Source: Sphaerodactylus townsendi (lineage: Eukaryota). From it: a stretch of 64,000 nucleotides of DNA. The stretch covers positions 23,002,001 to 23,066,000 of the forward strand of contig NC_059433.1 of NCBI RefSeq assembly GCF_021028975.2. Reading direction: 5' to 3'. Shown here one piece after another: positions 12,592 to 38,470 of this stretch. The notes beneath the pieces were generated by a model that was given only the letters and a program-made list of their open reading frames with translations, ran no database searches and was not told the DNA's origin. How positions within the stretch are numbered: position 1 is the stretch's first letter; each line of letters starts with the position of its first letter. The translations under genes and the position numbers were made by a program.

Positions 12592-12696
12592 ATGAGTGAA
12601 GCAGACATTATTTCCATCAGCTGCGTTTCCCTGGAGCTGATCCATAAAGATTCACTCAATGCTGAAAGCTGCAGTACTGCTTTGGATACCTCTCAA
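12592..12696 (+). CDS. CAGE1: CAGE1 first recognisable coding exon (exon acceptor at 12541)
   Basis: MSEADIISISCVSLELIHKDSLNAESCSTALDTSQ resembles recalled human CAGE1 MSESDTMNVS...TTCDLPQ; phase-0 GT donor; frame is open back to the acceptor, so the true start may lie further upstream. Confidence 0.7.
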
Positions 12697-13229
12697 GTGT
12701 GTACACTTTGAAATATTATTAGTTCTCTCCTGCGAGTTATGGGAGGGCAGTACTTTGGACTGTTAACCACATCTATTTGTTAAAATTTATTTAACACTCC
12801 ATAGTAATCGCTCTATAAACATTTACCATTTCAATACGACTTCCTGCAGTAAATCAAACTAACAAAAGCTCTCCCACCAAACAAAAACTTTTTACAAACA
12901 GCAGCCACAAATACTGAAGGCAAAAACATCCAGTTCAACTGTACAGGCTCAGAACGACGACTATTTTCTACACAGAGTGACCAGTTTTAAATTTTATGGT
13001 AATTTGCTGCATCTGAGGGGGTAATCATACATTAACTTTTGCACCCGTCTTTTCTCAGGTCCACCACAAAATCTTCGGATCAGATTTCCTTCCAAGTTCT
13101 GTATTTGGAACTGAAATCCCAGATAAACTGCCCCAAACAAAATTAGAACCACAGTGCACAAGAAGAAGGGCCTGCCTTAACCCCTTCCTCACAGTTTTCC
13201 TTAAATAGCCCTGTGAGTTGTTTGTCCCT

Positions 13230-13458
13230 AAGAACATAAGAACAAGCCAGCTGGATCAGACCAGAGTTCATCTAGTCCAGCTCTCTGCTACTCGCAGTGG
13301 CCCACCAGGTGCCTTTGGGAGCTCACATGCAGGAGGTGAAAGCAATGGCCTTCTGCGGCTGTTGCTCCCAATCACCTGGTCTGTGAAGGCATTTGCAATC
13401 TCAGATCAAAGAGGATCAAGATTGGTAGCCATAAATCAACTTCTCCTCCATAAATCTG
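13230..13458 (-). mobile_element. CR1 3' fragment
   Basis: Highly similar to 21128-21360. Confidence 0.88.
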
Positions 13459-14030
13459 CGGAATCTTTCATGTCCCTCTGGGGAATCTTTCATGTAGCCA
13501 TCAATACATGTAAGTTGGCCCAATGGGCATTAGCAGTTCACTGAGGCCGCCTGGGGCAAGAGAGTGATGCAGGAGCAAGGCACCCAAGCCCCTTTCCCTG
13601 TGGTCCTGATCCAAGTAAGTGCCCTGAGAGTAGATCTCTCCAAGCACGGAATTTTTAAGGCACAGCTGACTGCAAATTATTGTGGTGGGCCTGGAGAGGA
13701 CACAAATAAGAAGTAATACTCAGATCAAATGTAGTTAGGGCTTCAATGGACAGGCACTTGCAAAACAGTATTGAAGAGAAAGCCTGGTCATGCAGCAATG
13801 ACAGACAGAAAAATGGACCCATTTTCAATTCAATTGTGATTCATATCCTTCTATAAGATTTCCTTTTTTTTTCTTCATTCATCTCAGACTTCCCAGTATA
13901 TTCACACAATGATCATTTACCATAATTGTTGTCTGGAAACAATAAGACTAATCTATTACCATACCTGTAGGTCTTCATTTAACAGTTGCCTTGAAGATGC
14001 GTCCGCAGCAATAATCAACTTATGCCTAAT

Positions 14031-14185
14031 GTATTGTCGAAGGCTTTCATGGCCGGAATCACTTGGGTGCTGTGTGGTTTCCGGGCTGTATCCTCTGAAG
14101 ATGCCAGCCACAGATGCAGGCGAAACGTCAGGAGAGAATGCTGCTAGAACACGGCCATACAGCCCGGAAACCACACAGCACCCAA
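14031..14185. mobile_element. 155-bp Penelope-derived insertion with inverted halves
   Basis: 14-bp TSD AACTTATGCCTAAT (14017, 14186); homologous to the 52554 element terminus. Confidence 0.82.
14091..14133 (+). ncRNA. Minimal type I hammerhead ribozyme motif
   Basis: TCCT-CTGAAGA-(t)GCC...GGC-GAAAC-GTC-AGGA: core boxes, stem I TCCT/AGGA, stem II, GUC cleavage triplet. Confidence 0.7.
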
Positions 14186-14717
14186 AACTTATGCCTAATT
14201 GTTCATTTACATACAGGCTCTCCTTTTGCAATGGCACTGAAGGACCTGAAGAGGTCAATGGACATGGGGCAAAGGGATAGAAGCAGTCTGTGTGTTATGC
14301 TGTGTGAGGCTTTGATGGCCCACACCAATGTGGTATAGTGAGTAAGAGTCTTGGGCTAGTATCTGGAAGAGATTCAGGTTCAAACTGTGCCACGGGTCAG
14401 TCACATTTTCTCAGTCTAACCTATCTCCCAGTGTTGTTGTGAGGATAAAATGGAGGGCAGAGGAATCTTGTGAGCCACCTTGGGATCCCATTGGGGAAAG
14501 AAGCAGGACATAAATTAAATAAATAAATAAAACTTGAATTCCATTGAGAAACCAAGGGTAATTAACAACAATGCACATGAAACTGCCTCATACTTTGGAC
14601 TGTTAAGGTCAATGCATTTGCTCTGACCTGCATATTCTTTCAAGATCTCAAGTAGAACTCTTTCACATCATTTAATCGCTGATCTTTTAAACTGCAGGTG
14701 CTGGGGATAGTTTATGA

Positions 14718-15136
14718 CACTGATGGCGAACCTTTTTGAGACCGAGTGGCCAAATTGCAACCCAAAACCCACTTATTTATTGCAAAGTGCCAACCTGGCA
14801 ATTTAACCTGAATGCTGAGGTTTTAGTTTAGAAAAAACTGGTTGGCTCCCTCTTCTTCCACCCCACCTGCTTGAGCAAGGGCCAGCCTGCTGTAGCCTCC
14901 AGCAAGTCCTGTGCACACTGCTCTGTGCCTCTCTAGCATCTCTGCCTCCTCTGCCCCCCCCCCCCCAGACAGCAGCCACCCGGAGCACAGGCACCAGGCC
15001 CACCAGCCGAGTCCTCCCTGCTCACCGTGGTGCGCGGATTTTCTGCCCCCCACATGACGAACTCTGTGTGCACGTGCCCACAGAGAGGGCTCCGAGTGCC
15101 ACCTCTGGCACCCGTGCTATAGGTTCGCTATCACTG
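14718..15136 (+). mobile_element. hAT non-autonomous element
   Basis: TIR CAsTGATrGCGAACCT; near-TSD GTTTATGA/GTTTAGGA; ends shared with the 61357 element. Confidence 0.85.
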
Positions 15137-15992
15137 GTTTAGGATTTGTGTTGTGTGACCTAATCAAATGAAAATTTTGGACATTGCATTTTGAACCTGT
15201 TGTATTTTTTTTAAAAAAAATTCAAGGTCCACCTCATGTTTTATATGAGTTCAAATGGAAAATCACTAGAATCAAGCAATATTAATAGGTTCACAGACCT
15301 CATGGGGTCAGAATGCTGGCATCCGAAACTGCACTAAAAATGGTCATCCTGTTACAGGATTAATAGTGTCCTGTTTTACCAAAGCAGTCTTATTCCAATA
15401 ATGCAGATCAAACAAAGATTGTATAATGTCCTTACTTTGCATAATGCGTGCCTCACCAACTTGTGACCAACCAGTCTGCATGCAGCCCACAAGTCATATA
15501 TGACTGCATTCTAAGGACTTAATAAATTTTCTGTTTTTGCTACCTGCTTGGGACTGCAAAAATAAAGAGTAAAAATATTCATACTTGGCTAGTGACTGTG
15601 TTCAACCTTAGGAGTCACAAATTGAGCAGGACAGTCGAAAGAATTAGGTGGATTCAGCCAGCTTTCCTTGCTGGGGAAATGGAAAAGAAACATTCCCTTT
15701 GACCTCTGAAAATACTATTCTGTCAATTGGGAAACTTGAATGGACAAATTGTGTAGGTGGAGGCAGTGACAAATAGCTGGATCTAACCCAGTAATTTTAC
15801 AATAATGTACGACTGGCTACTTGATGTCCACAGTTCATACATTCCTCAGCAATCGGTAGTTTATATGCTAACATTCTTTTAGTCATTTTGACTGCGTATT
15901 TACTACATAGGTTGTTTTGTGCCCACAAATGCCCTTTTCCCATAACAGTCAATTGTTTTTTCTTTTTCTTTTCTTTTTTGGTGTGTTTGTAG

Positions 15993-16089
15993 GATGAAAT
16001 GCTGGGCACAAGGATGAGAAGTGAATGTGACCACACTCTTTACAAGGGGGACCACCTTTCTGAGCCACTGTTTGAAGATTTCTTATATG
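15993..16089 (+). CDS. CAGE1: CAGE1 exon (DEMLGTRMRSEC...LFEDFLY)
   Basis: Long T-rich acceptor; phase 0 in, phase 1 out; weak similarity to human [22 protein letters not shown]. Confidence 0.7.
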
Positions 16090-16389
16090 GTAGCTACCTT
16101 TTATGAGCCTATCCTATAAACCAAAAAGGACTTGAACTCTCATTGCTTCCTGTGTATTGGAATAATGGTTGCATATTTTATAAAAAGCGGATGGGTACAG
16201 AGGTGTCCAAGTTGACTAAGAAGCAGCCTCTCTTGAAATTGCAGCAACGTTCTGGAAGCCAACATGAAAAGATTCTATGTTTTGTGATGCCACCATGGAA
16301 ACCATTGGCAGGTTTAAATAAACAGGAGTCTTGTGACACCTTAAAAACAAACAAAATGTTATTCCAATATAAGGTTTCATGGACTAGAG

Positions 16390-16535
16390 CAGGGGTGTCC
16401 AACTCTGGCACTTCAGACGTTCATGGACTACAATTCCCATCAGCCCCTGCTGACATGGTCAATTGGCAATGCCAGCAGGGGCTGATGGGAATTGTACTCC
16501 ATGAACATCTGAAGCACTAGAGTTGGACACCCCTG
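16390..16535. mobile_element. Palindromic hAT MITE
   Basis: Same family as 5865; TSD GACTAGAG/GACTAAAG. Confidence 0.85.
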
Positions 16536-16895
16536 GACTAAAGCGTACTTCTTCAGATGCAACGAGCAGATCCTCACTATGCTCTCTTTTTATGTAAGGT
16601 GTATGAAAACAGGGACAAGGTATATGAAAACAGGGACAAGGAGCTATGACATGCAGGAAGTACAGGAATGTAATTATTAAAGATCTAATGACAAATATAG
16701 ACATCATTCATTACTTAACACCTGTCATGGGTACTATGTCCCAAATTTTACTGAGATAGTTAACATTTTGTTATGAGATAACAATTCCAACTCCTGGTTC
16801 AACACACAGTTGAGAAAAGAGAAGAATGTGAAACCACTTAGTTAATTGAGCAGTCTCCCTTTGAAGTTTGTTGCTGAAAGATGGAGACTTTCAGG

Positions 16896-17292
16896 CAGGG
16901 GTGTACCGTTGTAAAGTGGCGGCCACTCCCCCCACCCCACAGCTGCACCCATCCCACAACTGCGGCCCAGGGCCCCTCCCGTCACTTACCCAGCTGCCAC
17001 ACTGCCACAGGAGCCCACAGTGGCCCTGGGTCTTCCCCTGACGTCAGACTGTGCGCTGCCGGCATGTCCTGATTGGCGGTGGAGGAACATACAGTGATGA
17101 GCAGTAGCAGTGGTAGCAAGGTGGCCAAAGAAGCAGCTGGTGAGCAGGAGTGCAGTAGGTGGGTAAGTTGCTGCTGCTTGCTCCTGGGAAGAGGGCAGGG
17201 GAATAACCCAAGCGCCCCCCCCCCCCACATGATATGTTAGGGTGGCGCCTGGGTCGTATGACCCCTCTGGCCTCCTCCTAAATCCACTACTG
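16896..17292. mobile_element. hAT-like MITE
   Basis: CAG...CTG termini; TSD CTTTCAGG/CTTTCAGT. Confidence 0.6.
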
Positions 17293-18360
17293 CTTTCAGT
17301 TGGTTCTGGGATACTGAAATGTTCTCTCACTGTTTTCTGAATATTGTAGTTTTTAACATCAGATTTCTCTGGTTATTCTTTTTCATAGAAACTGGCCAAT
17401 TTGACCTTAGAGAAAACAGAAGGCATTATTGCCCTATGCAGTAGTATATATCATACTGGAGCATAAGCAAGCAGAGAAGCCTAAGATGGTTTAATTGATT
17501 TAACCGGGTCCTGAAACAGCATTAGCCAAATGTACAAGAGAGGGGGAAAGTTGTTATCTTGGCTGTGATTTCTGTAGAATTAGTGGCAGGCTGAAAAAGA
17601 ATGGCTTTGGCCATGAGACCTGAGCATTAGCCAATTAGTTGTTGTGAACTTGGAGATGTGGTAGGAACTGTTTTATATGGAGAAGTAGAAGATGAGGAGC
17701 TTCCTGGAAGTCACTTGAGTATGATTTCTTGTACAAGTTGACTTTCACTATTAGGGTTGGATTGAGGATTTAGAGTTGCAGATTCTGCCTTTGGTCCTAT
17801 GACTAGTGGCTTTGCCGTAGGTAGGAAATCAGTGTTCAATTCAGGCTCAACTGGAAACTTTCATCTGCCATCTCATCCATATGTTCAAAAATTGGGATCG
17901 TTTTAAAAGTGAACTGACCCAAAGAATCAAAGATGTATCACGACAGTCTGATCTGGCAAGATATTCAGATTTTCCTCTATGCTATACACAGAAATATATC
18001 ACTGCCCCTGCTCCTTACTTAACTTATCTGGATAATAAAGATCTAAGGAGAGCTTTTACTCTTGCAAGAAGTGCGCATTTACCTTCTGCTGTCTTAGAAG
18101 GGAAATATCAAAAGATACCTTGTGCTGCAAGGTTATGTTCTTGCTCTCTGAATTCTGTAGAAACTATAGAGCATATGTTATTAAAGTGTCCCCTTTATGA
18201 GGAGGCAAGGAAAAAATGCCTGTCACATCTACTACACAAAATGACATACTGTTCTGATAAAGTTTGTTGTGAAAAACTATTACAAGATAAGAAGGAGAAT
18301 ATTACTAAATGGGTAGCAAAATTCTGTCTATTGATTATGGAAAAGAAAAAATGATCTGAA

Positions 18361-18835
18361 TATTTATTTATTTATTTTATTTATTATTTGATTTAATATA
18401 CCGCCCTATCCCCGAAGGGCTCAGGGCGGTGAACAATAAAATATAAAAGCATACATATAAATTAAAACAGTTACAGTCTAAAACGATGCCCCACAAAACC
18501 CATATGCAACCCTCCCAGGAGTAAAGTAGTGGGTCCTGATGTTGGTAGGGACCCCTGTAGAGCAGGGGGGGCGGGGGCGGGGGCATCCTCAGCGGCTGGT
18601 CTCTCCGAAGGCCCGGTGGAACTCGGTCTTACAGGCCCTGCGGAACTCTCCAAGGTTCCGCAGGGCCCGGATAGCAGGTGGTAGAGTGTTCCACCAGGCA
18701 GGGGCTAGAGCCGTAAAGGCCCTGGCCCGAGTGGAGGCCAGCCGCATCATTGAGGGGCTAGGAATCTCCAGTAAATTGGCCTCTGCTGAGTGCAGAGGTC
18801 GACCTGGGACATATGGGGTAATGCAGTCCCGAAGG
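18361..18835 (-). mobile_element. L2 LINE 3' fragment forming the 3' end of the BMPR2 cassette
   Basis: ORF end RAFTALAPAWWNTLP...FRRACKT typical of L2; (TAAA)n tail at 18361-18390. Confidence 0.85.
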
Positions 18836-19580
18836 AACTCAAGGAGGCTTACAATGTAAATTAAACAACCATAAGAATACATAGAAGGTCATAATTGAAA
18901 AACAATTCAGGACTGCCGATAGAAAAGTTAGTCAAATGTTGTCCTAAATAAACTGCCAGCCATTCAGAAGGAAGGAATTTGAATCCCTAACACTGCAATT
19001 CTAAGCAGAGTTGAATGCGCTTCTAAGCCTATTGAAGTCAAGTCTGTTTTTGGTTTTTAATACTGTATTTTAATCATATTGTCAGCTATTTTGAGCATGA
19101 AGAAGAACTGGGATCTAATTTTTAAAAAATAGGTCAGCAGTACCTACTCAAAGGAAATCCTTTCCCACTGCTTGAGTGTTTTATCGTGCTTTAAACCAAA
19201 GGCCCCTAAAATAACCTTGGCAAGAAACAGTCACGATGTCTCCAGTGATACAAATAAAATTGGAAAAAAGACGATGGTGCAAATGAAGAAGAATCCTTTC
19301 TTATTCTGGTAAAAAAAAATCCTACACGTTTTGCAATAAAACTTTTCCTGGGGAAGAATCTGTTAGCCCGTACATATTTTACATCAAGAATGCAAGATCT
19401 GTCAACCTGGGCCACACCATTCAGAAAAATGGCCACTGCACCCATGGTTTGTACTGAAGGCACATTTGCAAAGTCAGCATGGCTGCAGAGAAGTGTGCAG
19501 CTGGATAGAAAGCAAAGCAACCCGGAGTCTTCTGCCAGAAGGCCTCGTGACCTTGGTTTCTCTTGATAAGTGGCGGGTCC

Positions 19581-20255
19581 TTATCGTATCTTCCTGACCT
19601 CCAAGTCAGCCGCAAAGGAATCCTCCAGCATCTTCAGATTGTCCAGGTCTAATGAGGGTTCTGATGTTGCTGCTTCCATCATGTTCATACTGTGCAGACC
19701 CTGCTTTCGGTCCCCTGCAAACATCCTGTATCCAAAGAAAAGAGCGATCACCAAAACAGCCAGTACAGATACTGATGCCAGAGCTATGGCAATTGTTTCA
19801 TCTCGGTGATATGAATGAGATGAATTGAAAGGCATCGCATTGGTGGGATCCGGTGGAAAGTTCTCTGTGAAGTTGACATTGCACAAGTCGGTGCTGCAGC
19901 AGCAGAATCGATATGTCTCATTCTGAACTAAAGATGGGGTGGTGGTTACGATGCACTCTTCCGAATGACAGTCGTGGGGGTCGCCTAAGTGAGACCAGCA
20001 TCCTTGCTTCACAAGATGTATGTCTCCTTCTCGTGTCTTCTCCCAGAGACCATAGCAGGTGCTGCCTTTCATACACAGGACGGTATCATTCTCTTGAGAA
20101 ATCCGACTTTCGTTAATTCCATGATCATTTTGATAGAAGTCCCTAGAAGCGCACGTTGTCTCTTCACTCTGAGCAGCCGCCGCAATGCCGAGCAGCAAGG
20201 TGGCACTGGCGAAGAGCAGCACCAGCAAAAGGTGCTGCTGCAACGAGGCAGTCAT
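19581..20255 (-). CDS. BMPR2: Intronless truncated BMPR2 retrocopy: signal peptide + ectodomain + TM + juxtamembrane, no kinase (224 aa; in-frame upstream ATG at 20276 adds 7 aa)
   Basis: [73 protein letters not shown] are BMPR2 motifs; four exon junctions crossed without introns; homology ends at 19623; no stop or frameshift. Confidence 0.93.
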
Positions 20256-21054
20256 ATTTGGGAGGTGGGGGGACATCAGGGCGAGGGAGGTGTATAATAA
20301 TAATTTTTAAAAAAGTAACGATCCCGACAAGAAGAAATCTCCTGTCTCCAAAGCGTCTTTTTCTGTTTTAAAAAACCCTCTTGGTTTGCAGCAATCCAGT
20401 CTGAAAGGGCAAATGGCAGACGAGCGCGGCTGCCTGAGGTCTTACTCCATTACGCGAGTCCGTCTTCATATTTCAAAAGGCCCAGGTTTCCCAGGAAGGG
20501 GCGTGGCGGGAGGAAACACCGCCCCACCCAAATAATAAACCCCTTTGAGTCACTTCGCATTTAAAAATAACCAGGCGTCGCCTCTTTCGAGAGGAATGTC
20601 CAGCGCCCGTCGCCCCATGTTGGGTCTGGGAACGGAAAATAATGGGGAGGCACGATGCGATGCTGGGGGCGGACCCACTTCGGCCTAGACGGGGGGGAGG
20701 GGGCAGGAAAAGAAGGGGGGGAGAGCTTCTCGGAGTCCCCTGACGAAGCAGCATCCACCGGGGAGGCCCTTTTCCCTCTGCAGCCGAGCCCCTCTCGCTC
20801 CCCCACGGCTGCGAAGGGGGGAGCCTCCTCTCGCCGCCCGACCTTCCTTCACGGCGCCTCGTCGGAAGGGCGCTCCGGCTCCCCCGCCTTGTGGAGCCGC
20901 CTTCCTCGCTTCGCCCTGCGGGCAAGTGTGTGGCAAGAGAGGCGTCTGGGCGGGCGAGGAATGAAGAAGGGGGGGGGGGGTTCTCTCGCCGCCTCCCCGT
21001 CCCCGGCGCTCCCCTCCCTTTCCCCTCAGCCCAGACACAAAGGGGAGTCGCCGC
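20256..21054 (-). other. Retained GC/CpG-rich BMPR2 5' UTR of the retrocopy
   Basis: ~800 bp GC-rich, contiguous with the ORF, ending abruptly against AT-rich LINE sequence; 5' end GACTCCCCTTTGTGTCTGG resembles the recalled start of human BMPR2 mRNA. Confidence 0.8.
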
Positions 21055-21126
21055 TTATGGTATCCCCCCTTAGATATTTTTGTTTAGTTTAGTATTTTTA
21101 TGATGTTTGGTGTGTATAATGATATA

Positions 21127-21881
21127 GTAAGAACATAAGAACTAGCCTGCTGGATCAGACCAGAGTCCATCTAGTCCAGCATTCTGCTACTCGCAGTGGC
21201 CCACCAGGTGCCTTTGGGAGCTCACATGCAGGAGGTGAACGCAATGGCCTTCTGCTGCTGCTGCTGCTCCTGAGCACCTGGTCTGCTAAGGCATTAGCAA
21301 TCTGAGATCAAGGAGGATCAAGATTGGTAGCCATAGATCGACTTCTCCTCCATAAATCTGTCCAAGCCCTTTTTAAAGCTGTCCAGGTTAGTGGCCATCA
21401 CCACCTCCTGTGGCAGCATATTCCAAACACCAATCACACGTTGCGTGAAGAAATGTTTCCTTTTATTAGTCCTAATTCTTCCCCCCAGCATTTTCAATGA
21501 ATGCCCCCTGGTTCTAGTATTGTGAGAAAGAGAGAAAAATTTCTCTCTGTCAACAATTTTCTACCCCATGCATAATTTTATAGACTTCAATCATATCCCC
21601 CCTCAGACGTCTTCCTCTCCAAACTAAAGCAGTCCCAAGCGGCTGCAGCCTCTCCTCATAAGGGGAGAGGATTGCTCCAATCCCATTCAATCATCCTCGT
21701 TGCCCTTCTCTGCACTTTTTCTATCTCTTCAATATCCTTTTTGAGATGTGGCGACCAGAACTGAACACAGTACTCCAAGTGCGGTCGCACCACTGCTTTA
21801 TATAAGGGCATGACAATCCTTGCAGTTTTATTATCAACTCCTTTCCTAATTATCCCCAGCATAGAGTTTGCCTTTTTCACA
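21127..21881 (-). mobile_element. CR1 LINE, 5'-truncated
   Basis: RPHLEYCVQFWSP...EKVQRRATRMI motif; TTCTTATG tail; 13-bp TSD GTATAATGATATA at 21114 and 21882. Confidence 0.92.
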
Positions 21882-22060
21882 GTATAATGATATATAGATG
21901 GATAGTGCTGGAATACGGGAGAGAGATCTGCATTCTTGTTTTGTTGTAGATATTTTGGAGATTTGTAATATATCTGGTCATTGACTGTAAATAAAGTCTT
22001 CTTCTTCATCTGCCATCCATCTTTGATTTATTTATGAATATTCTATCTGATTACATGCAG

Positions 22061-22539
22061 ATTCTGAAGATGCTTCAGAAAAACTAATGACACCACTCAA
22101 CACTCTGAGAACTTGCCCTGTAGATAAAGATTGTTCCTATACTAGCGAGTGGAAAGACTCCAATGAAGAATTATCATCCCAAGAAGAAGCAACGCAACAG
22201 TGCAGAATACTGGATAAGCAAAAGGAAAGCTGTGGAATGGCAAAAGACCATGGTCAAGAGGCAGCCTGGGAACTCACGACTGAGGAAGCTTTACCAGGCA
22301 AGGACTTATTCTTGGATACATTGGCCATGCCTACCCAGGAAGATCCATTGGTAATCATGGGGGAATCATTACTGGACAGCATTGTGAAGGACTCCCCCAT
22401 CAAAGAAGTATCAAGTTTTCTCACTCAGCCCACCAGCTCTTTATTGAAGACAGAGGAGTCTTTTGCAGATGAAGATTTCCCTATTACATCGGAAGTTTCA
22501 AATGTGGCTGAAAAAACATCTGATCAGGATGGAAATGTG
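22061..22539 (+). CDS. CAGE1: CAGE1 exon (acidic N-terminal region)
   Basis: In frame with ORF 22087-22662; CAG acceptor phase 1; GTG|GTAAGC donor. Confidence 0.8.
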
Positions 22540-23616
22540 GTAAGCTTCTCTTTAACTCTGTGCAAAAAAAATTGGAACAAACGTGATGAAAATGAGACTT
22601 CTTCCACCAGAAATGAGCAAATGTACATCAGCTATGGCTTTGTTTTCCATTTGTACAGCTAATGGCCCCATCCAAAGGGAGGAGCCCAAATCCGTCTGTG
22701 GAGGTGGCACAGGCCTAGATCTGCAGACTTTCCCCGGCAGAGGGGTGGGTCTGTTGGTGGGTGGCCACTGTAGCCAGATGAAATGACCAGACATGGGTGC
22801 ACAAGCCACACCAGTTTTCCTGTGCATTCCCTGCCTATGGCAGTGTCGGATGGAGGTTCGGGGGGGGGGGTGGTTCTGGGGGTCATGGCTGGGGAGAGCT
22901 GATGTTAGTCAGCTTCCACCTCCGCTTTGCCACCAGAAATGTTGGTGCCTGGCTCCTGGACTTACACCACCTTTTCGGTGGTGTAAATCCATGGCAACCC
23001 TATAGAAGGCTTTATGCCAGTGGTGGAGGAGTTGTTTGCCTTTTTGGCTCCCTGTGCTGCAGTAAAGCTGTACTGGGAATTATGGGAATTCCCATCAGCC
23101 CCTGCTTTTCTTAATAGCAACTGTAGCGGGGAAAGCACAATCTTTCTGTCAGGAAAATAAAGTAATTACAGCGGTGAGCTGACTGACAAACATCTCAGTG
23201 ATATGTGTGTATTTGGCCTTTGAGTCTTTGGTAATCACATGTGACCACTGGGAAGTTAAGAGGTCATCTCTCCCAACTAACATACAAACTAGAACAGTGG
23301 TCAGACATACCACAATGTTTAAGAATCCTTGGATTCTCTAAGGGCTTTAAGCGTCAAACGGCAGCTTGCTATAATCAAGTTATTGCTGTTTAGTGATCCT
23401 TTAAGTTTCCTCCCTACTCTTCCTCTGCCTGAAAACAGAATTGAAGGTAAATGTAACAGACTCATTGAGTTAGACCCCTGTAAGCCCATTGTCTTCAGTG
23501 GATTTAGAAGGGTATAATTCTGCTTCAGATTGCATTGTGTATCTCTAAGGTGAAAACACTATGTTCCATTAATGAAGTCATGTTGAACAGTTTTGGATGC
23601 TACCAATCCCCAAAGG

Positions 23617-23805
23617 ATGCTACCAATCTTGATCCTCCTTGATCTCAGATTGCAAATGCCTTAGCAGACCAGGTGCTCAGGAGCAGCAGCAGCAGCAGAA
23701 GGCCATTGCTTTCACATCCTGCATGTGAGCTCCCAAAGGCACCTGGTGGGCCACTGCGAGTAGCAGAGTGCTGGACTAGATGGACTCTGGTCTGATCCAG
23801 CAGAC
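23617..23805 (+). mobile_element. CR1 3' fragment
   Basis: Reverse complement of 21140-21330. Confidence 0.85.
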
Positions 23806-23808
23806 TGG

Positions 23809-23875
<67 letters not shown>

Positions 23876-23878
23876 TTT
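23809..23878. repeat. (TTTA)n microsatellite
   Basis: Seen directly. Confidence 0.95.
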
Positions 23879-24198
23879 GATTAATTATTTAATTAGTTAC
23901 TTTGTTTATAAACTGCTCCCCCCCCCCCCCCAATAGTGCTGATTATAATTGTATCTCACTTTGGGAACAACACGCTTTGTGCTTAGGGGCTATCAAGAGA
24001 TCTTCCATCTAGAGTCTAGACACTGACAAGACTTACTTCCCCTTAGAATCTGCAAGGTTTTTTGCTCTTTTATTCGTTTATTTAATCACCCATTCTTCAA
24101 CCACAGTTGGCTCCCAAAGTGGCTCACAACAATTTATATTCAGTACAAACTGTGTTTTCATTCCCAGTCAGTGAACAAACTCTGAATCTTTTTGATAG

Positions 24199-24390
24199 GT
24201 GGACACTGAACAACCCACCAAATCAGCAGACGCAGGGCTCACTGTTTCTCCAGATACTTTGGACGAAAACGTCAACTATATTTGCACTCTCATGCAATCA
24301 AACAGACACTTAAAAGAACGTCTCAAGAGGAACCTGGCATATTGTACCAATCAAGAAGAAGCGGTTAGCAGCCCTTCTCCACCAGAAAGT
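24199..24390 (+). CDS. CAGE1: CAGE1 exon (VDTEQPTK...SPSPPES)
   Basis: TAG acceptor, AGT|GTAAGA donor, 192 nt phase 0/0, open frame. Confidence 0.7.
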
Positions 24391-25199
24391 GTAAGACGCC
24401 TTTTTATTTCTTCATTTTATTCATGGGGGGGGGGGGGCGCTATGGGAAAAGGCAGCACTGCTGTGAAAATATGTAAATGCATCAGTAAAAAAGAAAGACA
24501 AAACAGATTATTTTCTTATTTAAAGGAAGACTTGTTCTTAGAAGATTAGTCATCGCTTGATAAAGTGAATGAGTGAATGAACCATCACTGATGTTATATC
24601 ACAGATAGGACTTTTGTATCTCATGAACCACAACTGAGGCTGAAATTTCTAGAGATTTGGGGATGAAACCTGGGGAGAGTTGAGTTTGGGGAGGGGAAGA
24701 AAGGGAAGGAAACACCTCAGTAGGATATAGAGTCTCTCCAAAGCAGCCATCTTCTTCAGGAGAACTGATCTCTGTTGTCTGCAGATCAGTTGTAAATCTG
24801 GATGGTCTCCAGGCCCCGCCCAAAGGTTAGCAACCATAGACACATTGGGTTTCAGGAAATTTACATAATGTATTCAGTTAACAAGTATCAAGAGACTGTG
24901 GAGGAGCTGCAGCTTAGCAGTTACAGTAAGTTGTGTTTACAGAAGGTGGTCACCTTTGTGAACCGGGACGGGGGGGCGGGTAGGTGGTCTCGCGCAGGGG
25001 AGGCTGCCGCACTGCCTTGTGCCCCAGAAGGCAGTGCGGCAGCCTCCCAAAAATCGGGACAATTTGAAGAACCTGCAGGATGCGGGACAGATTGTTTAAA
25101 GGCGGGACTGTCCCGCCAAAAGCGGGACGTCTGGTCAGCCTATCCTAGACGCAATCCCATTGAAAATATAACTGTTAAATAGATCTGTTAAGAGTAAAC

Positions 25200-25735
25200 A
25201 TTTATTTTATTTTATTTTATTTTATTTTATTTTATTTTATTTTATTTTATTTTATTAGACTTGGTGTGCTTCAATTAGACTTCAGTATCACCATTAAAAT
25301 ATTTAAAATGTTTTAAGAAGAATTCAGTAAATTACATTTCAGTACTTTTATACAATTTTCAGATAGTGATAAATAATAACATCCAATGAGGGTCAGCTAT
25401 GGGTTTGATGGAAAAGAGGGAAGGCTAGATGTTCCCGTAGCTGCTTCAACCATCTGTCTGGTAGAACAGCTCTGTCATACAGGTCATGCGGAATTGCCCC
25501 ACAGGGCCCTGGTCTCATGGGACAGAGTGTTTCACCAGACTGGGGCCAGGGCAGAGAAAGCCCTGGCCCTGGTTGAGGCCAGCCGGACTTCCTTAGGGCC
25601 AGGGACCACCAGCAGATTACTGTTTGTCGAATGAAGTATTCTTTGGAGAATGTACCAAGAGAAACAGTCCCAAAGGTACGCAGGTCCCAGACCTCTTAGG
25701 GCTCTGTACGTAAGTACCAGAACCTTGAACTGGTA
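25200..25735 (-). mobile_element. L2 3' fragment with (TAAAA)n tail
   Basis: Similar to 18361-18835; (TTTTA)n at 25200-25256. Confidence 0.75.
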
Positions 25736-26204
25736 TAACTCTGCCTAAGACCTTGATGACAATCAAAACAGACAATGCAAGGCTAGATAATTAATCAACT
25801 CTCTGTGACCCAGTTTCAAATCCGCACTCTGTCCTGAAACTTGCTGAGCTACCATGGGTGAGTCACTCTTTCTCAACCTACCTTAAGGGTGTTGGTTGTG
25901 AAGATTAAATGGGGAACAGAGGATCATATGCAACATATGTTGCACTCTGAGTTCCTTGAAGGAAAATCCAGGATAAAAATGTACTAGATTGGTAGTAGAT
26001 TGAATAGTCCAGAAAGAGCAAGTGTTGGATGCCCAGAAATGCAGCCATAGCAAAAGGACGTCTCTTGAGGTCAAATTATGGAAATGTTCCCACTTTAGTT
26101 TGAAAGCTATCAAGTCACTTTCTAACATCTTCTAAAAATTGTAAAATAAACAAATTGATTATTTCCGATCAAGTGATTTGAGCTTCCTTTTTAACTTGAA
26201 AAAG

Positions 26205-27419
26205 GTTGGAACTGTATCCAAAAGAGAACATAAAGCAGAAAAGAAATTAACACCTCTACAAGCAGAGATGGCAAAAGACTGTAGGCAAGGGGATGTAGGA
26301 GACCAAGGCATTTCTCCTTCCCACGTTACAAGGAGCTGCTGCCTGAATCCTTATGAAGCATCCCTAAAACTCTATGAGAGAAACACCTTGGAATTTAGTT
26401 CAAAGCAACTGCTGCTTCAGGAAGGTGACATGGACTTCTATGGGACAATTAATGGCTTAGGGCACAACCAGCAACAGCAGCTGACCCACATTTTGGATCT
26501 TCAGCACTGCAGTGTGGTTTTAGAGAAGAAGATTAGTGAAATGGAGACACTGCTGCTTCAGGAAGGAGATATGGGCTGGGACAAAGCCATCCAGGAACTC
26601 AAGCAGGACCAAAAGAAGCAGCAGACCCAAATCATGGATCTCTACTACGATGCTGTTTCCATGGGAACCAGGGTTAAAGAGTTGGAGGTGGACGTTCTCA
26701 AGCAGCGTGACTTCTTTGACACCATCAACACCTTGAAGAGGACTGTTGCTGATCTCACAGAAGCCAAGAACAGGGCCACAGAGGAGAAGGACAGGGCAGA
26801 AAGTTTCCTGAAGAGCAGAGAAGAGGCTTTCGCCAGCACTAATGGTCATCTTCAGGATGTTGAGGCGGAGAGATCAACTCTGATGCTGCAGCTGAAAAAG
26901 TTTAAGGCTGATGTGAGTGCCTTCCAGGGAAAGCTTCAGGAAGAAATGGAACAGAAGGCCAAATACATGGACCAGTGTGTGGAGCTGGACTCCATTTTCC
27001 ACAGGAAAGAGCAAGAAATACAAGAGCTGAGGAACATCAAGCACCAGTTGGAACAGGAGGTTGGAGGCACTGTGTCAGCTCTGCAAAAGATGAAGGAAGA
27101 AAAGCACACCCTTGAGAAGCATGTCAAATCCCTGCAGGCAGTGCTGCAGAGGCAGAAGGACGAGCGGCGGGCTGAAAGGAAAAGGCTGGGCTCCAGATAC
27201 AACAAACTGGTCGCTCAGATCAAAATCTTGCAGGTGCAGTCTGAGAACGAACAGGCGGAGATGGAGAAAATGCAGCAGCAGGTCCACATGTTCAGAATGG
27301 AGAATGACGGACTTCAGCAGCAGGTGGCAAAGGGCAAAAATGAGAACCAGTTACTACAGGCGGAGTCTGCCAGGTGGAAAGAACAGTGTGACCAGATCAG
27401 AGAATCACAAACACTGAAG
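26205..27419 (+). CDS. CAGE1: CAGE1 large coiled-coil exon
   Basis: 405-codon open exon; RVKELEVDVLKQRDFFDTINTLK, LQLKKFKA, SENEQ, LQQQVAK motifs match the recalled human CAGE1 coiled coil; AAG acceptor, AAG|GTACCT donor. Confidence 0.9.
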
Positions 27420-28072
27420 GTACCTGGGGATCTGAAATGGCTGAATAGAAAGATAATTTTAGGGGTACAACTATTCAAGGGATGCCATAGTAGATTACAG
27501 GTAGATTCCCAACTGGCTCCCATAATGGCCAGCCAGATAATTTTGAAACTATGGTTCGATGAGGACTTCTACCTTGTTCATGTCCTCCTTAGGCATGTCT
27601 GGGAGGGAGGGAGGAAGGGAGCGAGCGAGCGAGCAACTGCAGTAGACTGCCTTCAGGGGGACACTTGGCTTATAATGGAGTAGCAAAACCCTGTCCTTTT
27701 TTTTCACTTTAGTGCAAGTTCCTTAAAAAATCTGCCTCAGTGTTTTCAGCTTACTGGGAGATGTCTTTTGACTAGCATTTAGCATGTATGGTATTGTTGG
27801 ACCCCACAAACCTGGGGTCCATTGTACTTAACCCTGGAGGGCTCCATTGATTATAATAATTCAAATGGTACCCCCAACCCATTTCTCCCTACCCCCAGTC
27901 TCCAGACTTGAAATTTGTGAGAACCGTTTGATAAGAAATTTCAAAGCCAGTTTCAGAACCCTCAACGGAAGGAAATCCCCCCCATCTGTACCTCAAGACA
28001 GTAGTGAATATTAGTGATGGAAGGATTTAATAAGCCTCCGTGTTCATAAAATACTGTTCTGTTTTTGTCTAG

Positions 28073-28195
28073 GAGAAGATGCAGTACCAGATTATCGAGG
28101 TACTCAGCTATAAGCTTCAACTACAGCAGGAAGAACTGAGGAAAAAAGAAGAAATAATCGCATGGAAGATGCACATTTTGGGAAGGCTTCATTTG
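28073..28195 (+). CDS. CAGE1: Candidate CAGE1 exon (EKMQYQIIEVLSYKLQLQQEELRKKEE...)
   Basis: Good acceptor, coiled-coil-like open frame, phase 0/0; no human counterpart recalled. Confidence 0.5.
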
Positions 28196-28383
28196 GTACA
28201 TTCATTTTTTGGGGAGGGTATATTCTTAGAACAGTACCAGGGGGTGGGGGATTGTGTAGGACTGAGCCACAATCAGCACAAAATTACATATATGCTTAAG
28301 CCATTGATTTCAGTGTGCTACAAGTATAACTGAAGCTGAAACTATACGATGAGTATTCTCTGTTTTGTCACTGTTTTCAGTAG

Positions 28384-28409
28384 ACTATAACAATAGCAGC
28401 ACGCACATG
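28384..28409 (+). CDS. CAGE1: Candidate 26-nt CAGE1 exon
   Basis: CAGTAG acceptor, TG|GTAAGG donor; phase 2 out fits the next candidate exon. Confidence 0.3.
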
Positions 28410-29325
28410 GTAAGGATTCTCCATTATACATTAATTGCAACCGTGGAGATCTGTAGAGAATTGTTGCAACTGTGGAAATTCTTATGTTCTTATGTTCTTA
28501 AACCGGGTGGATGCATTGACAGCAGAGTCTACGCATGAGCTTTCTGCTCTTTCCTGACAGCTGCAATTTCACCCTGCATTTCCCCACCCCTCCCCATACC
28601 ACTAAAGAATTTTTGAAGGTTTTAAAAAACAATGGTATGGCATTATAATGCCGCAGTAGTTTGTGTTATAAAAATCCCTTAAAAGTTATCTGCAGGGATG
28701 GTTACAAGGACCTGGCGGAAGGACCTGGTTACAAGGACCTGGTAGAAGGAAAACAGTGGTCGTTTCCCCATTTACCTCGACCACCATTTGCTGCGCGCTA
28801 CTCTCAGCCTTGGCGTCATCTCTAGCTCGGGATTCCCCGACCCGAGCCGCGGTGCATCAAAAGGCACCGTTTTGAGGAGAATGGCAGCTGAGAGCCTTGG
28901 CAGCGATGAGGAGGCTGACAACGTTGTGGCTGCCTAGCAGTGGGGAAGTGCTGGGACCCAGCTGCAGGAGAGTAGCATGAACTGATGCGGTGGGGAAACG
29001 ACCAGTATTGATGTGGGTGGGATGTGCAAAAGTGCCCTACTTCCTATCCATTCCACATTCTAACACTCTTGGGCTTCATTCTTCCTGAAAAGATCAAAAT
29101 AGAGCAGGTTTGAGAATGACAATCATGAGGGTGGGGAAAACTGAAAAAGGAAAAGATTAGAATACAGTATTGCACAGATGGTCCCAAAAAAGCAGCACTC
29201 TGGTTTGGAGGCAAATTGGAGAAAAAAATGGGTGTGGCTTTGGGCTGCTATCGAACATCTCAATAAACTATGGTTTGTCTAAACCGTGAATTGTGCAGCA
29301 ATACCCCCTTCGGGGGTAGGACGGT

Positions 29326-29479
29326 NNNNNNNNNNNNNNNNNNNNNNNNNNNNNNNNNNNNNNNNNNNNNNNNNNNNNNNNNNNNNNNNNNNNNNNNNNN
29401 NNNNNNNNNNNNNNNNNNNNNNNNNNNNNNNNNNNNNNNNNNNNNNNNNNNNNNNNNNNNNNNNNNNNNNNNNNNNNNN
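29326..29479. other. Assembly gap (154 N)
   Basis: N run. Confidence 1.
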
Positions 29480-29613
29480 GCAGACAGCTTAGGGGGGAAA
29501 GGTGCACTTTGAAGTGTTCTCGAAAAAAGATACCTTGAGCAGAAATAAGGTGTCCTGAAGACTTCTTGGGGAAAAGGCTGTGTGGAGTTCCTCCCCAAGA
29601 TTCCTTTTTTTAG

Positions 29614-29701
29614 CATCCTCAGGATGTCTTATTTGTGTTGTGCAGAATGGACCGATAATGAGGAAGATCTCTGTGGCATACAAACTGGTCTGACTTTCTG
29701 T
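29614..29701 (+). CDS. CAGE1: Candidate CAGE1 exon (ILRMSYLCCAEWTDNEEDLCG...)
   Basis: T-rich TAG acceptor in phase 2; GTAAAA donor in phase 0 restores frame to the 30075 exon. Confidence 0.3.
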
Positions 29702-30074
29702 GTAAAAGGTTTTGTAGCTGTGCCAGAAGATGATTGTAAAGCCAACCATTTCCACCTAGATACTCAACTGGAAAAAAGTAAAAATAAATAAGTTCCCCTA
29801 AAGTATTTTACCCCTTTTCTCTTTTAAAAATGCACATATTTTAAACACTCCCCCTTAACCCTAAATTTAAATGACATATTGAAATATTGAAATACATTTT
29901 GCATTCATTATACTTACAGTACAATCTTAAGCAGAGCTACATCCTTCTAAAAACTCATTAAAGTCAGTGGGTTTAGAAGGGCATAACTCTGTTTAGGATT
30001 GCACTGTTACAGTTCTAATGATCACAGTTACCAAACTAATTCATAATCTTCAATGTATGCTCTGTTTAAAACAG

Positions 30075-30224
30075 GACATGAAGTCAGTGCAGTCTGATTT
30101 GTCCACCAGAAGCCTCCACACTGAAGAAAACCATTCCAACTCTCCCTATGTCCAGAAAGCATCCAACCTCTTGACGAAAATTCGCAGTCTTTTGGCTCTA
30201 ACAGAGGGCTTACTTACCTGTCAG
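30075..30224 (+). CDS. CAGE1: CAGE1 exon (...KASNLLTKIRSLLALTEGLLTCQ)
   Basis: Matches human [32 protein letters not shown] donor. Confidence 0.88.
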
Positions 30225-32540
30225 GTAATGCAAAACAGCCCCTTCAATACCAGTCTAAATAATAACTAAAGAATTAGTTCTATGCTCCATCTGGACCTAC
30301 TAACCATCTTGGCATTCACTGTATTGTATATTTCCAACACGAATGAAATAAATCTTGCTTCTGTGCCAGGAAAACAAATCGGTCTTATTGTAGTCCCTTC
30401 CCTCCAACATTCATCAATCATGATTGTGTAGGCAAAGCCCGTGTATGTTTTATCTGCTGAAGTAATTTTGAAGGCTTTAAATGAATAGGCAGCCAGGGCA
30501 GTGACAATCAAACATGACCCAAAATCAACATTCACTGCTTGTTTATGGTGGTAGTGAAAAGCACCTTCAAGTCACAGTTGACTTTCCTATCAACTGTGAC
30601 CTTGTAGGGTTTTTACAGCAAGAGATGTTGGAAGGTGGTTTGCCTTTGCCTTCCTCCCCATGGGCTGAGAGAGTTCTGAGAGAACTGTAGCTGGCCCAAG
30701 GTTAACCAGTAGGTTTCATGTGGAGGAGTAGGGAATTGAACTCGGTTCTCCAGATTATAAACTGCTGCTCTTAACCACTATATGCTGCCTCAGTGCCTGT
30801 TTATAGGAAGAGCCATTAAGCAGATCACAAAGGCAAGCACCTATACTGCTATGCAAGGGCTTCCTGCCCAAGCTGTTATGGGATTTTGTTCACATCTGCA
30901 TGTAAGGCACGGATATCACCGGCTGCTTCTCATCTTATTGTGACCTCTTTCTTAAACATTCTTGGATATTGCTACAATCAAGATGCTTTCATAAATTCAC
31001 TGAGCCTTGGAAAACAACAACTCTCTAGATATTAATGCGTCATCCAGACATACATTCCCTCTGTTGTGGTTTCATTATTAGCTTATGGAGCTTTCTCATA
31101 CACCTAAACCGCTTACCTGTGATGAGGTAACGTGATAACAAGAAAACTCTTTTTCGCGCATTATTTTTTATTTTATTTTATTTATTATTTATATTTATAC
31201 CCTTCTAAAGAGGCTCCAGGTGATTGTCCATCTTACTAAAACAATTTAAAACATCAAATATATACTTTACAATAAAATAATATATAAAATACTAAGCTTC
31301 TAGATGGCTGTACTTCCTTTATAAAATACTAAACAACCCTAGTTTGCCCCTTTATGTACCCGGAGGCCAGATGTTCTTATGGTGGAGTTGACATCCAGCT
31401 GGCCGCCTGTGAGGAACAGGATGATTTCCACAGGCGCTGACATTATCTTAGATCCAAACTTTCACTGCACAACTAAAAGAGTACTTCCACTTGGGCAAGA
31501 AGGGGAATGATTTCTGCTGATTTCCCATTCCCACTACGGACTCCCCACACCACATCGCATGCTGCTCTAAGAGTCCCCTGGAAGGATTACAAAAACTGGG
31601 CACATGCACAGACAGGTTGCACACTATGTCACACAGTATACTGTATACCTAGTTGACGGGACATGCATGCGGGCCTCTTCTGGACAATGGCAGTATTAAC
31701 CAGGCCAGACTTCAGAGCGTTGCAAAGCCTGTGATCGCTTTCAGGTGACTCATTCGGGCCAATGTTCTGTCACTCCAGTACAATGCAAAGCTGTACAGGG
31801 AGCTAGGGAACACTAAAGTTTCAGAGTTTGTACGCAGGCTCCAGCGGGAGGAATTTCTGTCAGTAGAATGGGACTTCCTTTTCCCGCACCCATGTTGCTG
31901 CAGCCCAAAGTGCTCTCCCAAAATGCTACTTCTGTGGGACAGGAAACCCCAAGGAACAGCATGAGGGATGAGTCTACAATGAAACTAAAGACTCAGGGGA
32001 AAAAAATCTACTCGTTGAAATCTATCACTGGATCCAACCCACTGACGACAATCCTCCAAGTATTATTTGGGTTTCACCCTGTAGGGCTCTGTGAGAGCTA
32101 GGATTGTCAACACTGGGTTGGGAAATTTGGGGGGTGTTTGGCTAATTTTTATACATGATGTTCAGTGAAATGGACAGTTATTTGAATTTTAAAAAGTACC
32201 CCTACTTAACCTGGGAGGCATGAATAATTTCTTGACCAACTGCTCAGGGAATGGAATATTTGTGGCTTTGACATCATTGGTGCACTCGGGACTATAAAGA
32301 AGAGTTACATGACGAGAGTGTCGTGCTGTGGTTCTCCATGCCAAGACCAGCATGGACTTGCAACTCGGTTGCTGTTATAGGCACTTGCGGTTGACAAAAT
32401 CACAAGGGCAGAAGAAGAACTTCATTGAGACTGGTCAGGAGAGTGAACCAATCAAAGCATGATTCATCCCTGCACACTGGAAAGGCAACTTATACATATC
32501 TTAGGCAGCCTGGTGTCTTTTTCCTGTTCTCTGAGTGAGC

Positions 32541-33091
32541 CACTGGCGTAATGACCATTGGGCAAGGTGGGCAGCTGCCCAGGGCATCACCTTGTCGGGG
32601 GCATCAAAATGCTGGGTTCGTTTTTGGGTATTTTAGTGGTTTTCCATTTTTGGCCTGCAGGGGGCGCAGTTTTTAGGCTAGCGGCACCAAAATTTCAGCG
32701 TATCATCAGGAGACTGTCCTTCTGCTACCCCCCAAGTTTGGTGAGGTTTGGTTTAGGGAGTCCAAAGTTATGGACTCCCAAAGGGGGTGCCCCTATCCCC
32801 CATTGTTTCCAATGGGAGCTAATAGGAGATGGGGCTACAGTTTTGAGGGTCCATAACTTTGACCCCCCTGAACCAAACTGCACCAAACCTGGGGGGTATC
32901 ATCAGGGCATTCTCCTGATGATATGCTGAAATTGTGGTGCTGATATGTCTAAAAATGCACTCCCTAAAGGCATCAATGTCCCGGTGCCAAAAAAAAATTG
33001 GTTGTGGTGGAGTGGCCGCCCATGGGGGGGCATCCAACTCAGGTTTTGCCCAGGGCTACAGTTTGCCCAGGGCTGCCTCGTTACGCCCCTG
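32541..33091. mobile_element. hAT non-autonomous element
   Basis: TIR CAsnGGCGTAA; 8-bp TSD GAGTGAGC; internal units shared with 11780-12085. Confidence 0.85.
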
Positions 33092-34255
33092 GAGTGAGCA
33101 TAGCACTAGTAAGAGGTTTGGTGAGCCATTTCAATATTTAAAACACATTAATAAAGTTAGCTTTGCCTGCTGATAATGCGTATGTGTCTTTTTTGTTGTT
33201 GTTTCCAATGAGCTGTTTTTGAAGCTATGGAGACTCGATATGAGAATTGGCAGTATGTGCAGATTTCAAGTCTCCGCTAAATGTTAGTAATTTCAGATAT
33301 CAAATGGGTTACCAAGTGTATCTGGTCGTATGGGTTCCTTTTTTAAAGTGTTGGCGGTTGTGGGAACAGGTGTTTAAGAAATGAGTTATGCTTTTCCTGT
33401 ATTATAAACTGTTTGCCTGTTTTACACTCGTGTTGTAATTCTTTAAGAGATATTACTGCTGCACTCACAATGCACCAAATGTAGCATAATGGGTGAACAT
33501 TTTTCTAGGGAACTGTCATCCTGATTTTCTTATGGTATTGTGTGATTCTATTGTATTGGGGTTCATTATTATTGGATTATTGTACTGTACTGAATTTTAT
33601 TATAGTTTGTAAGCCACACTAAATATGGACTATAGAATAAATAAATTTAATAATAAATAAAAAGTACTAGTCTCAAAGGGGGAAATATGGTGGAAATTTA
33701 CAGAATCGAGACTAGGTTTGGTTGTCGTCTTGGGGTTGTCAGCTTGCTTCTTTTACCCGTAATCCTTTTCCAGCATACTGCCTGATCTGCAAGAATGCTA
33801 CGCCTAGGAGTTGCCCTTTGGTCAAGATCAGTGCAGGCATTCCAGAGTCTAATTGTGCCATCCCTGAAGTCTAAACATCCAAGAGATAATGGTATCTGAG
33901 ATTACCCTTGATGGAGACCTGATGTTTTCATCATGTTTTCATCATGTTTTCATCATGTTTTCATCATGTGATGAGTATGCTCCCCACAGCCATATCCTCT
34001 TGGAATGCCTGGATACTGTACATTCTTGATTGACATATATTATCTCTTCTGTCAACTATAAAGGCATAAAACTTGGTTGTTTCTTTTATTTCATACTTCA
34101 TGCCAATGCTACCAGTGGTTTGTGTGGGCCTTGGTATGCAGATGGAATATATTCCTTATTAATCTTATATTAAGCAGTATTGGGTTTTTTGGGGTTGTAA
34201 CTGCTATGCATGTTTCTTTTTAATATGTTATATGGTGTAATATATTGTTTTAGAT

Positions 34256-34896
34256 CAGTGTTTCCCAACCTTTTCGAGTCAGAACTCTTGACCTCGAGGT
34301 CAGGGTCTCTCATATGACCTGCACTACCCTCACATCTCACGGTACCCACCTTCCCCGGCCATCCCATTGCCCTGCGCCACACCCCCCACCTTCCCCTCCC
34401 AGGGTGAAGGGAAGCACGGGGGGAGGGGTGGCTGCTGACCTTGCGGCAGGCTCTGCCCCATGGGCCAGCTCCATGTCCTTGCTGGCGCCGGTGGGAGACA
34501 CCACAAAAATGAGGGGGGGGGGGCGTTAGTGTTGCCACGGTACCCCTGGGACATGCTCATGGCACCCCAGGGTACTACGGAACCCTGGTTGAGAATGGCT
34601 GTTTTAGATTGTTCAGCTCTCTCTCTCTCTCTCTCCATTAGTTAATATTAATTCCCCCCCCCCCCACCTTCCTCCCAGGGTGAAGGGAAGCACGGGGGAG
34701 GGTGGCTGCTGACTCCATGGCAGGCTCCTTCTGCCCCATGGGCCAGCTCCATGTCCTTGCTGGCGCCGGTGGGAGACACCACAAAAATGAGGGGGGGGGC
34801 GGGTGTTGCCACTGCACTCTGGGACATGCTTCATGGCACCCCAGGGTACTACGGAACCCTGGTTGAGAATGGCTGTTTTAGATTGTTCAGCTCTCT
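34256..34896. mobile_element. hAT MITE whose right ~240 bp plus flank is tandemly duplicated
   Basis: TSD TTTTAGAT; 34380-34625 repeated at 34660-34896. Confidence 0.75.
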
Positions 34897-35044
34897 CCTG
34901 CAGGTGGATCTGAACTTTCAGCCACTCACTCCATCCAGCCAACAGACTCAGGGAAACTTGGAGCTCCAGGAAGCTCCTTCCTGGACCCAGGATTCTGTGA
35001 CGGTAGTGCACACTCTTCATTTTATATCACTGTTTATTTGATAG

Positions 35045-38429: not shown

Positions 38430-38470
38430 TAAAACAGTGAGAAGTAATTATGGGGAGGGTTAGGTAGGAG

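Follow-up and report, generated by a model that had tools for sequence, protein, structure and literature searches.

A processed BMPR2 copy with scrambled exon order and an L2-derived 3' end in an intron of CAGE1 in Sphaerodactylus townsendi

How can a spliced host mRNA be copied into a new genomic site when the copy ends in the tail of an L2 element instead of poly(A)? This question is raised by a cassette of about 2.7 kb in the window analysed here (C9:23002001-23066000, 64,000 nucleotides in all), which runs on the minus strand from 21055 to 18361. The initial annotation, made from the letters of the window, had read it as the BMPR2 5'UTR, exons 1-5, a foreign exon, about 475 bp of L2 3' end and (TAAA)n, and had proposed that the L2 machinery mobilised a host mRNA. 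Alignment to the parental gene, with GT/AG boundaries at the joins, bore out this order of parts, and the cassette is a real single-copy processed insertion. The features of the locus are collected in Table 1.

Composition of the cassette and its insertion site

The parental BMPR2 gene on C2 is single-copy and full-length in the assembly, and its relatives of closest identity are those of Euleptes and Gekko (92%). The 5'UTR and exons 1-5 at C2:19693489-19593542 align to minus-strand positions 21055-19623, where the introns are gone and all four colinear exon-exon joins fall at canonical GT/AG boundaries. Within the cassette 5'UTR, 276 bp are missing at 20476/20475, between GCCTT repeats; the ends of this gap are not GT-AG, so an intron was rejected and the gap was regarded as a deletion. 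The remaining part (19622-18361) forms one unbroken alignment to C2:19700190-19698943 (94.6% over 1,269 columns), the L2 and its 5' junction included. This source shares the strand of BMPR2 and is found 5.5-6.7 kb before its exon 1. On the other side of the source, about 30 kb further upstream and again on this strand, follows a gene that we take to be NOP58-like from its translated exons. The exon that had been called foreign therefore comes from the gene's own upstream region. Since the block lies upstream of exon 1, the template RNA had a scrambled exon order. Substitutions between cassette and parent amount to 2.5% and 0.9% in the two parts of the 5'UTR, 2.5% in the coding sequence, 3.3% in the upstream block and 2.8% in the L2; this divergence of 0.9-3.3% over all parts (2.5-3.3% in four of the five) is consistent with a single event.

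Because the block, the L2 and its 5' junction align without a break to the parent, the young L2 predates the cassette. A check of the parental locus, suggested in the initial annotation, found the same L2 joined at the identical junction, CGAAGG/AACTC. This finding refutes both a template switch of the L2 reverse transcriptase (RT) onto BMPR2 mRNA at that junction and a later insertion of the L2 into a finished copy. The other route that had been proposed, termination of the mRNA in an intronic L2, is wrong in position, since by coordinates the L2 is upstream of exon 1. At the parent, the young L2 (C2:19699420-19698900) sits in the loop region of an older tail, presumably L2-like by its motifs, and only the left half of this older tail was copied.

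In 23 of the 24 other host-LINE copies the sequence is contiguous across the insertion point, and both flanks of the cassette are therefore parts of one interrupted LINE, in agreement with the earlier reading. Co-insertion with the host LINE by double switching was rejected on the same empty-site comparison, as it would require an exact return in the opposite orientation. The host LINE has a 13-bp target site duplication (TSD; 17860-17872 and 22005-22017). Its family gave 40 scored matches at 95-97%, with TSDs of 10-18 nt in 11 of the 17 measurable copies; it has (CTT)n tails and open frames of up to 659 aa and was recently active. A further insertion in the host-LINE 3'UTR, which we take to be CR1-like from its motifs, has a duplication of 13 bp. 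This exceeds the 3-5 bp at which duplications of the CR1 clade are reported to peak, so that TSD length is no absolute guide to the clade.

The 3' end of the cassette falls inside (TAAA)n, and inspection of this end found no poly(A), as had been stated. The target is not T-rich, and its duplication is 0-3 bp; the earlier statement that there is no TSD thus holds in that the duplication is short or absent, and the exact value of none should be replaced by this range. The candidate is a TAT triplet, and chance may easily produce three matching nucleotides next to a tail of A and T. Neither a TT/AAAA site nor a TSD of 10-20 bp, as expected of L1, is present at the insertion.

Table 1 Features of the locus (positions in the window)
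Feature	Position	Strand	Description and basis
CAGE1, coding exons intact	12592..42059	plus	tblastn of CAGE1 homologues; Pfam CAGE1; 100% match to Sphaerodactylus townsendi CAGE1 entry
Host LINE, 5'-truncated	17873..22004	plus	Retains ORF2 end (CCHC-like motif), 3'UTR and (CTT)n tail; cassette and CR1-like copy inserted in it
Presumed CR1-like insertion	21128..21881	minus	In host-LINE 3'UTR; 13-bp duplication
GT donor	21059..21060	plus	Lies 4 nt beyond the cassette in the host LINE; used with acceptor 22060/22061 of CAGE1 exon 3 in an X1 contig
TAT triplet	18361..18363, partner 21056-21058		3-bp target duplication or tail microhomology; junction and empty-site comparison
BMPR2 5'UTR with CpG island	20256..21055	minus	5' end directly joined, 1,074 nt above parent ATG
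Predicted 224-aa ORF	19581..20255	minus	Signal peptide, ectodomain, transmembrane and juxtamembrane parts of BMPR2; no kinase
ORF exons 1-5	20255-20177, 20176-20003, 20002-19826, 19825-19715, 19714-19623	minus
Non-colinear junction	19622..19623	minus	Exact exon-5 donor to upstream AG; G at 19622 in excess of what canonical splicing of the present parent gives
Non-L2 block, terminal exon	18836..19621	minus	From C2:19700189-19699401, 5.9-6.7 kb above exon 1; supplies 13 codons and stop
Older tail, presumably L2-like, left half	18836..18854	minus	Split by young L2 at parent, where right half follows young tail
Young L2 3' end	18361..18835	minus	RT C-terminus, 3'UTR, stem-loop, (TAAA)n; 475 bp; copied from L2 at C2:19699400-19698943

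The L2 tail and the candidate enzyme

The tail element was filed as L2 on sequence features, not on an RT tree; it is 97.2% identical to the parental L2. Its 3' hairpin has a computed stability of -23.3 kcal/mol (z -2.94, 0 of 200 shuffles as stable), and (TAAA)n-type tails occur in copies of the family, for which a first look gave about 5,900 candidates in the genome. Open RT frames of 500-620 aa are present in the family, and RVT_1 was found in three of the four fragments scanned, the fourth covering mostly the region upstream of the RT. No AP endonuclease was seen within the recovered fragments; it is found in many of their closest database relatives. Four L2 relatives are 96-97% identical to the cassette L2, about equal to the identity between cassette and parent, so a cognate L2 enzyme was available at that time. 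One relative (96%) is located at C2:19738705-19739165, on the opposite strand, 39 kb above the acceptor and within the presumed NOP58-like gene. Another copy, at C5:5924626-5925400, directly follows an exon of a gene that we take to be Lon-protease-like, and looks intronic rather than chimeric. An N gap at C2:8562139-8564068 is flanked by two equal L2 copies pointing in opposite directions, which may be an artefact of assembly.

Recognition of the tail by L2 ORF2 has been established for zebrafish L2s (available text of PMC4176376). Compared by eye with that text, the copies L095 and L106 have P, W, E and W at offsets 0, 1, 17 and 20, matching positions 324, 325, 341 and 344 of ZfL2-2. It has also been reported that TSD lengths peak at 3-5 bp for L2, 13-15 bp for L1 and 10-12 bp for RTE (PMC4245944, parts available). 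In the present L2 family the longest word shared by the two flanks was 3-7 nt at all 27 loci compared and reached 8 nt at none of them; these were 27 of 30 loci, two beside an N gap and one used as the reference being excluded, and two tails were mis-parsed.

Processed pseudogenes of the same genome were used for comparison. Searches for three ribosomal-protein families gave two of them, neither with an L2 tail, and no processed copy of RPS3A was found in the genome. The RPSA pseudogene (C7:54644300-54645500) has a 12-bp TSD at a TTTTT/AA site and lacks poly(A), while an old pseudogene at C1:138789000-138789700, presumably RPS12-like, has a short A-run. Since RPSA also lacks poly(A), it is the shortness of the footprint and the position of the end within the tail that speak for L2, and not the missing poly(A). 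The end within the tail repeat, the 0-3 bp duplication, the lack of a TT/AAAA site and the activity of the family make it likely that L2 mobilised the cassette. The mobilisation proposed at the outset is thus supported indirectly, and both routes proposed for it fail as they were stated. BMPR2/L2 is one single case, and we infer the identity of the enzyme from these footprints.

Origin of the scrambled template

In the cassette, exon 5 continues into a sequence that is found 107 kb upstream in parental coordinates. Its acceptor is the AG nearest downstream of a branch-point-like motif, CTGAT; the context of this AG, GAG, is weak. The extra G at the junction requires that 1 bp was gained in the copy or lost in the parent; both the extra G and the weak acceptor count against splicing here. 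A SINE in intron 6 has 20 matches in the 110 kb upstream, the best of which is inverted (92% over 315 bp) and lies 577 bp above the acceptor. The score of this pair was reached by one of 73 tiles, the observed one, and by none of about 300 random pairs, with window sizes picked post hoc and the pair already known. Its downstream member stands beyond exon 6, 2.3 kb from the donor, which also counts against this reading. Inverted repeats are reported to favour both trans- and back-splicing (PMC6283421, parts available).

Intron 5 is 537 bp, and no repeat common to it and the upstream 110 kb was found. In mRNA/L1 chimeras ascribed to trans-splicing, donors mostly precede long introns (according to the available part of PMC13174262), so the short intron 5 counts against trans-splicing. 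The 5' end of the cassette lies below a GC box and is joined without microhomology or extra bases. Direct 5' joining accompanies full-length inserts in the available text of PMC4245944, and a linear RNA is therefore favoured over a circle. Such a TSS-like end would be expected of a full-length linear RNA from a putative BMPR2 start. The scrambled template was probably of spliceosomal origin. As the source RNA, a trans-spliced product has about even odds and one from a lost duplication is unlikely; a circle is slightly less likely again, and a junction made by an RT jump is very unlikely.

The reading that we prefer, at a probability of roughly 0.45, is that a processed BMPR2 copy was joined to the L2-tailed upstream block by non-colinear, most likely trans, splicing and was reverse-transcribed by the cognate L2 enzyme via the tail. 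A young L2 was inserted 5.5 kb upstream of BMPR2 in the orientation of the gene. An upstream RNA, probably read-through from the gene presumed to be NOP58-like, may then have crossed the weak AG and the L2, and the inverted SINEs may have paired it with BMPR2 pre-mRNA, so that the exon-5 donor could be spliced to the upstream AG. L2 ORF2 would have bound the tail stem-loop, primed in (TAAA)n at a nick in the LINE of CAGE1 intron 2, and copied to the 5' end of the RNA.

The main rival is a lost tandem duplication or DNA circle that put the block downstream of exon 5, so that a linear RNA reaching the L2 was spliced in cis and retroposed by the L2 RT, the allele being lost later or collapsed in the assembly. 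Normal splicing by itself would then explain the TSS-like 5' end, the exact donor and the L2 end. However, no second copy of BMPR2 or of the DNA above the acceptor was found in the assembly, which leaves ancestral or collapsed alleles; the breakpoint must fall in the 537-bp intron, where it has no repeat shared with the upstream 110 kb; and the inverted SINE pair is left unaccounted for. We consider this rival doubtful. A back-spliced circle from a read-through precursor, from the upstream AG to exon 5, with reverse transcription starting at the L2 tail inside it and ending early near the BMPR2 promoter, appears a little more doubtful. It would account for the non-colinear junction, the lack of poly(A) and the inverted repeats around the would-be circle, and the upstream gene, presumably NOP58-like, is on the same strand. 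Circle-derived pseudogenes are also described from mouse and human (available text of PMC4897178). However, such a circle would contain a further 5.45 kb, from the L2 to exon 1, and the copy instead stops with a direct join at a promoter-like position.

The enzyme is questioned in another alternative, by which the chimeric RNA was retroposed without L2 protein by another LINE, L1 or the host-LINE family, that primed on the A-rich end of the L2 or on a poly(A) that has since disappeared. L1-like retroposition does occur in this genome, as the RPSA pseudogene indicates, and the L2 tail contains AATAAA; the 0-3 bp duplication, the lack of a TT/AAAA site and the end inside the repeat speak against it, as do the longer duplications (10-14 bp) of the host-LINE family, and it is improbable. 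Most improbable is that reverse transcription began on an upstream L2-ended transcript and that the RT moved to BMPR2 mRNA at a point 787 nt into the block, where the end of exon 5 offers a GAG microhomology. The two sides of the junction do have GAG in common, and RT jumps typically leave an extra G, but meeting an exact exon end and an AG by chance is unlikely (by our rough estimate about 0.1%), and the inverted repeats point to splicing. An extended form of the preferred reading, in which an intragenic germline RNA trans-spliced via the inverted SINE pair was captured by a stringent L2 RT and fixed as an expressed gene making a BMPR2 decoy without a kinase together with a new CAGE1 promoter, is rather unlikely as a whole.

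Consequences for CAGE1 and relation to known systems

The cassette lies antisense in CAGE1 intron 2 (16089-22060); a break of a CAGE1 exon by the host LINE was rejected, since the LINE is in this intron. An exon of SSR1 (TRAP alpha) is found downstream of CAGE1, at 57021-57428. Among the sequencing runs containing the cassette, none was listed as RNA. In two runs from one organism and one study (X1 and X2), contigs join CAGE1 exons across a GT..AG intron and thus behave as spliced RNA, the kind of run not being on record. Record 4 of X1 joins 19623-21058 to CAGE1 exons at 22060, 24198 and 26205 with plus-strand splice signals, and its two mismatches and one gap to the copy indicate that it derives from the copy and not from the parent. 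Record 3 (X1) and record 7 (X2) span the scrambled junction with 30 letters on the exon-5 side, one short of the bridging rule applied, and reach 18731 and 18806. Since contigs give neither strand nor start, they may come from a single antisense RNA or from overlapping transcripts that leave the island in both directions; contig depths and the low cover over CAGE1 exon 2 were kept out of the expression evidence.

None of 45 CpGs has been lost in the island of the copy, against 10 of 57 elsewhere (Fisher p=0.002), which suggests that the cassette island is unmethylated. It is likely that it acts as an unmethylated, possibly two-way promoter. No in-frame BMPR2-CAGE1 fusion is present, the strands being opposite and no in-frame upstream ATG being found; the most that a plus-strand RNA could encode is a CAGE1 shortened at its N terminus. 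The upstream block at the parent (C2:19700189-19699404) has lost one CpG against seven in the copy, hinting at a low-methylation element 6 kb above BMPR2. DNA run X8 from organism C has the copy letters at four diagnostic sites, with the parent letters also at two, which hints that the insertion is shared with organism C. Run X5 from organism B has only parent letters at four diagnostic sites, and the runs of this organism contain 0.42-0.55 of the sampled words, against 0.34 expected from the parent of the present genome.

The 224-aa ORF is intact. No signal of purifying selection was seen in it, with seven amino-acid changes on the side of the retrocopy and three on that of the parent against four synonymous changes in total. 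There are no indels in 633 bp, against 13 in the non-coding alignment, which is about 2 kb long; this difference is not significant (rough P about 0.13). Parental exons 2-3 have the own changes Y68F, S88T and S98L at sites conserved in 6/6, 6/6 and 5/6 outgroups, and the retrocopy keeps the ancestral residues at these positions. Dominant-negative BMP type II receptors that lack the kinase are known. The predicted ORF resembles them in having the ectodomain and transmembrane segment without the kinase; if a sense RNA were translated, the product would be a putative kinase-less decoy receptor. The ORF differs from them in being a prediction with no signal of selection.

Each ingredient of this case has a precedent. 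SINEs are known to use LINE tails (PMC3747384, PMC7983390), and in the SINE-LINE pairs of stringent LINEs with L2, CR1 or RTE tails, such as Squam3 with its L2-derived 3' end, a non-autonomous RNA likewise carries an L2 stem-loop and a short repeat and leaves little or no TSD (available parts of PMC4176376, PMC3747384 and PMC7983390). Here the passenger instead occurs once and is a protein-coding RNA made by pol II, spliced and about 3 kb long, with a tail from a genomic L2 near the gene. Like processed pseudogenes made by L1, the cassette has lost its introns, has a full-length 5' end and is inserted elsewhere; unlike them, it lacks poly(A), a 10-20 bp TSD and a TT/AAAA site, and its exon order is scrambled. 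Pseudogenes derived from circRNAs share a non-colinear splice junction fixed in DNA and the lack of poly(A) (PMC4897178), but the acceptor in the cassette lies outside the gene, upstream of exon 1, and its 5' end is like a linear mRNA start; the L2 tail also offers a priming mechanism, which the available text of PMC4897178 leaves open. In the mRNA/LINE-1 chimeras ascribed to trans-splicing (available part of PMC13174262), exons similarly end at a donor and were joined to LINE-bearing RNA before retroposition. The cassette differs from these in that its LINE is L2 and not L1, its acceptor falls in unique DNA, 787 nt before the LINE, and its partner comes from the gene's own upstream region, with five exons and a short downstream intron. 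In the literature searched, to which most subscription papers and the supplements did not belong, neither this locus nor a spliced mRNA mobilised by L2 was found described, and no case combined all the ingredients.

It is held that stringent LINEs such as L2 and CR1 make few retrocopies because their own tail is needed; CR1-type recognition limits retrocopy formation, and retrocopy counts track L1 and not L2 (PMC5470649 and PMC3136929, as far as available). An LTR route to retrocopies has also been described (PMC5131818, parts available). The preferred reading would cross this barrier, since any RNA ending in a young LINE copy can become a substrate, and would add a route to new gene copies through L2, which is thought rare. 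It predicts a searchable class of LINE-tailed retrocopies with short TSDs in reptiles, fish, birds and the platypus. Furthermore, a non-colinear junction in inherited DNA is not a library artefact, the standing objection to trans-spliced RNAs, provided that a past duplication is excluded. In Sphaerodactylus townsendi, the copy brought a CpG island into CAGE1 and carries, as a predicted ORF, a ready-made truncated BMP receptor.
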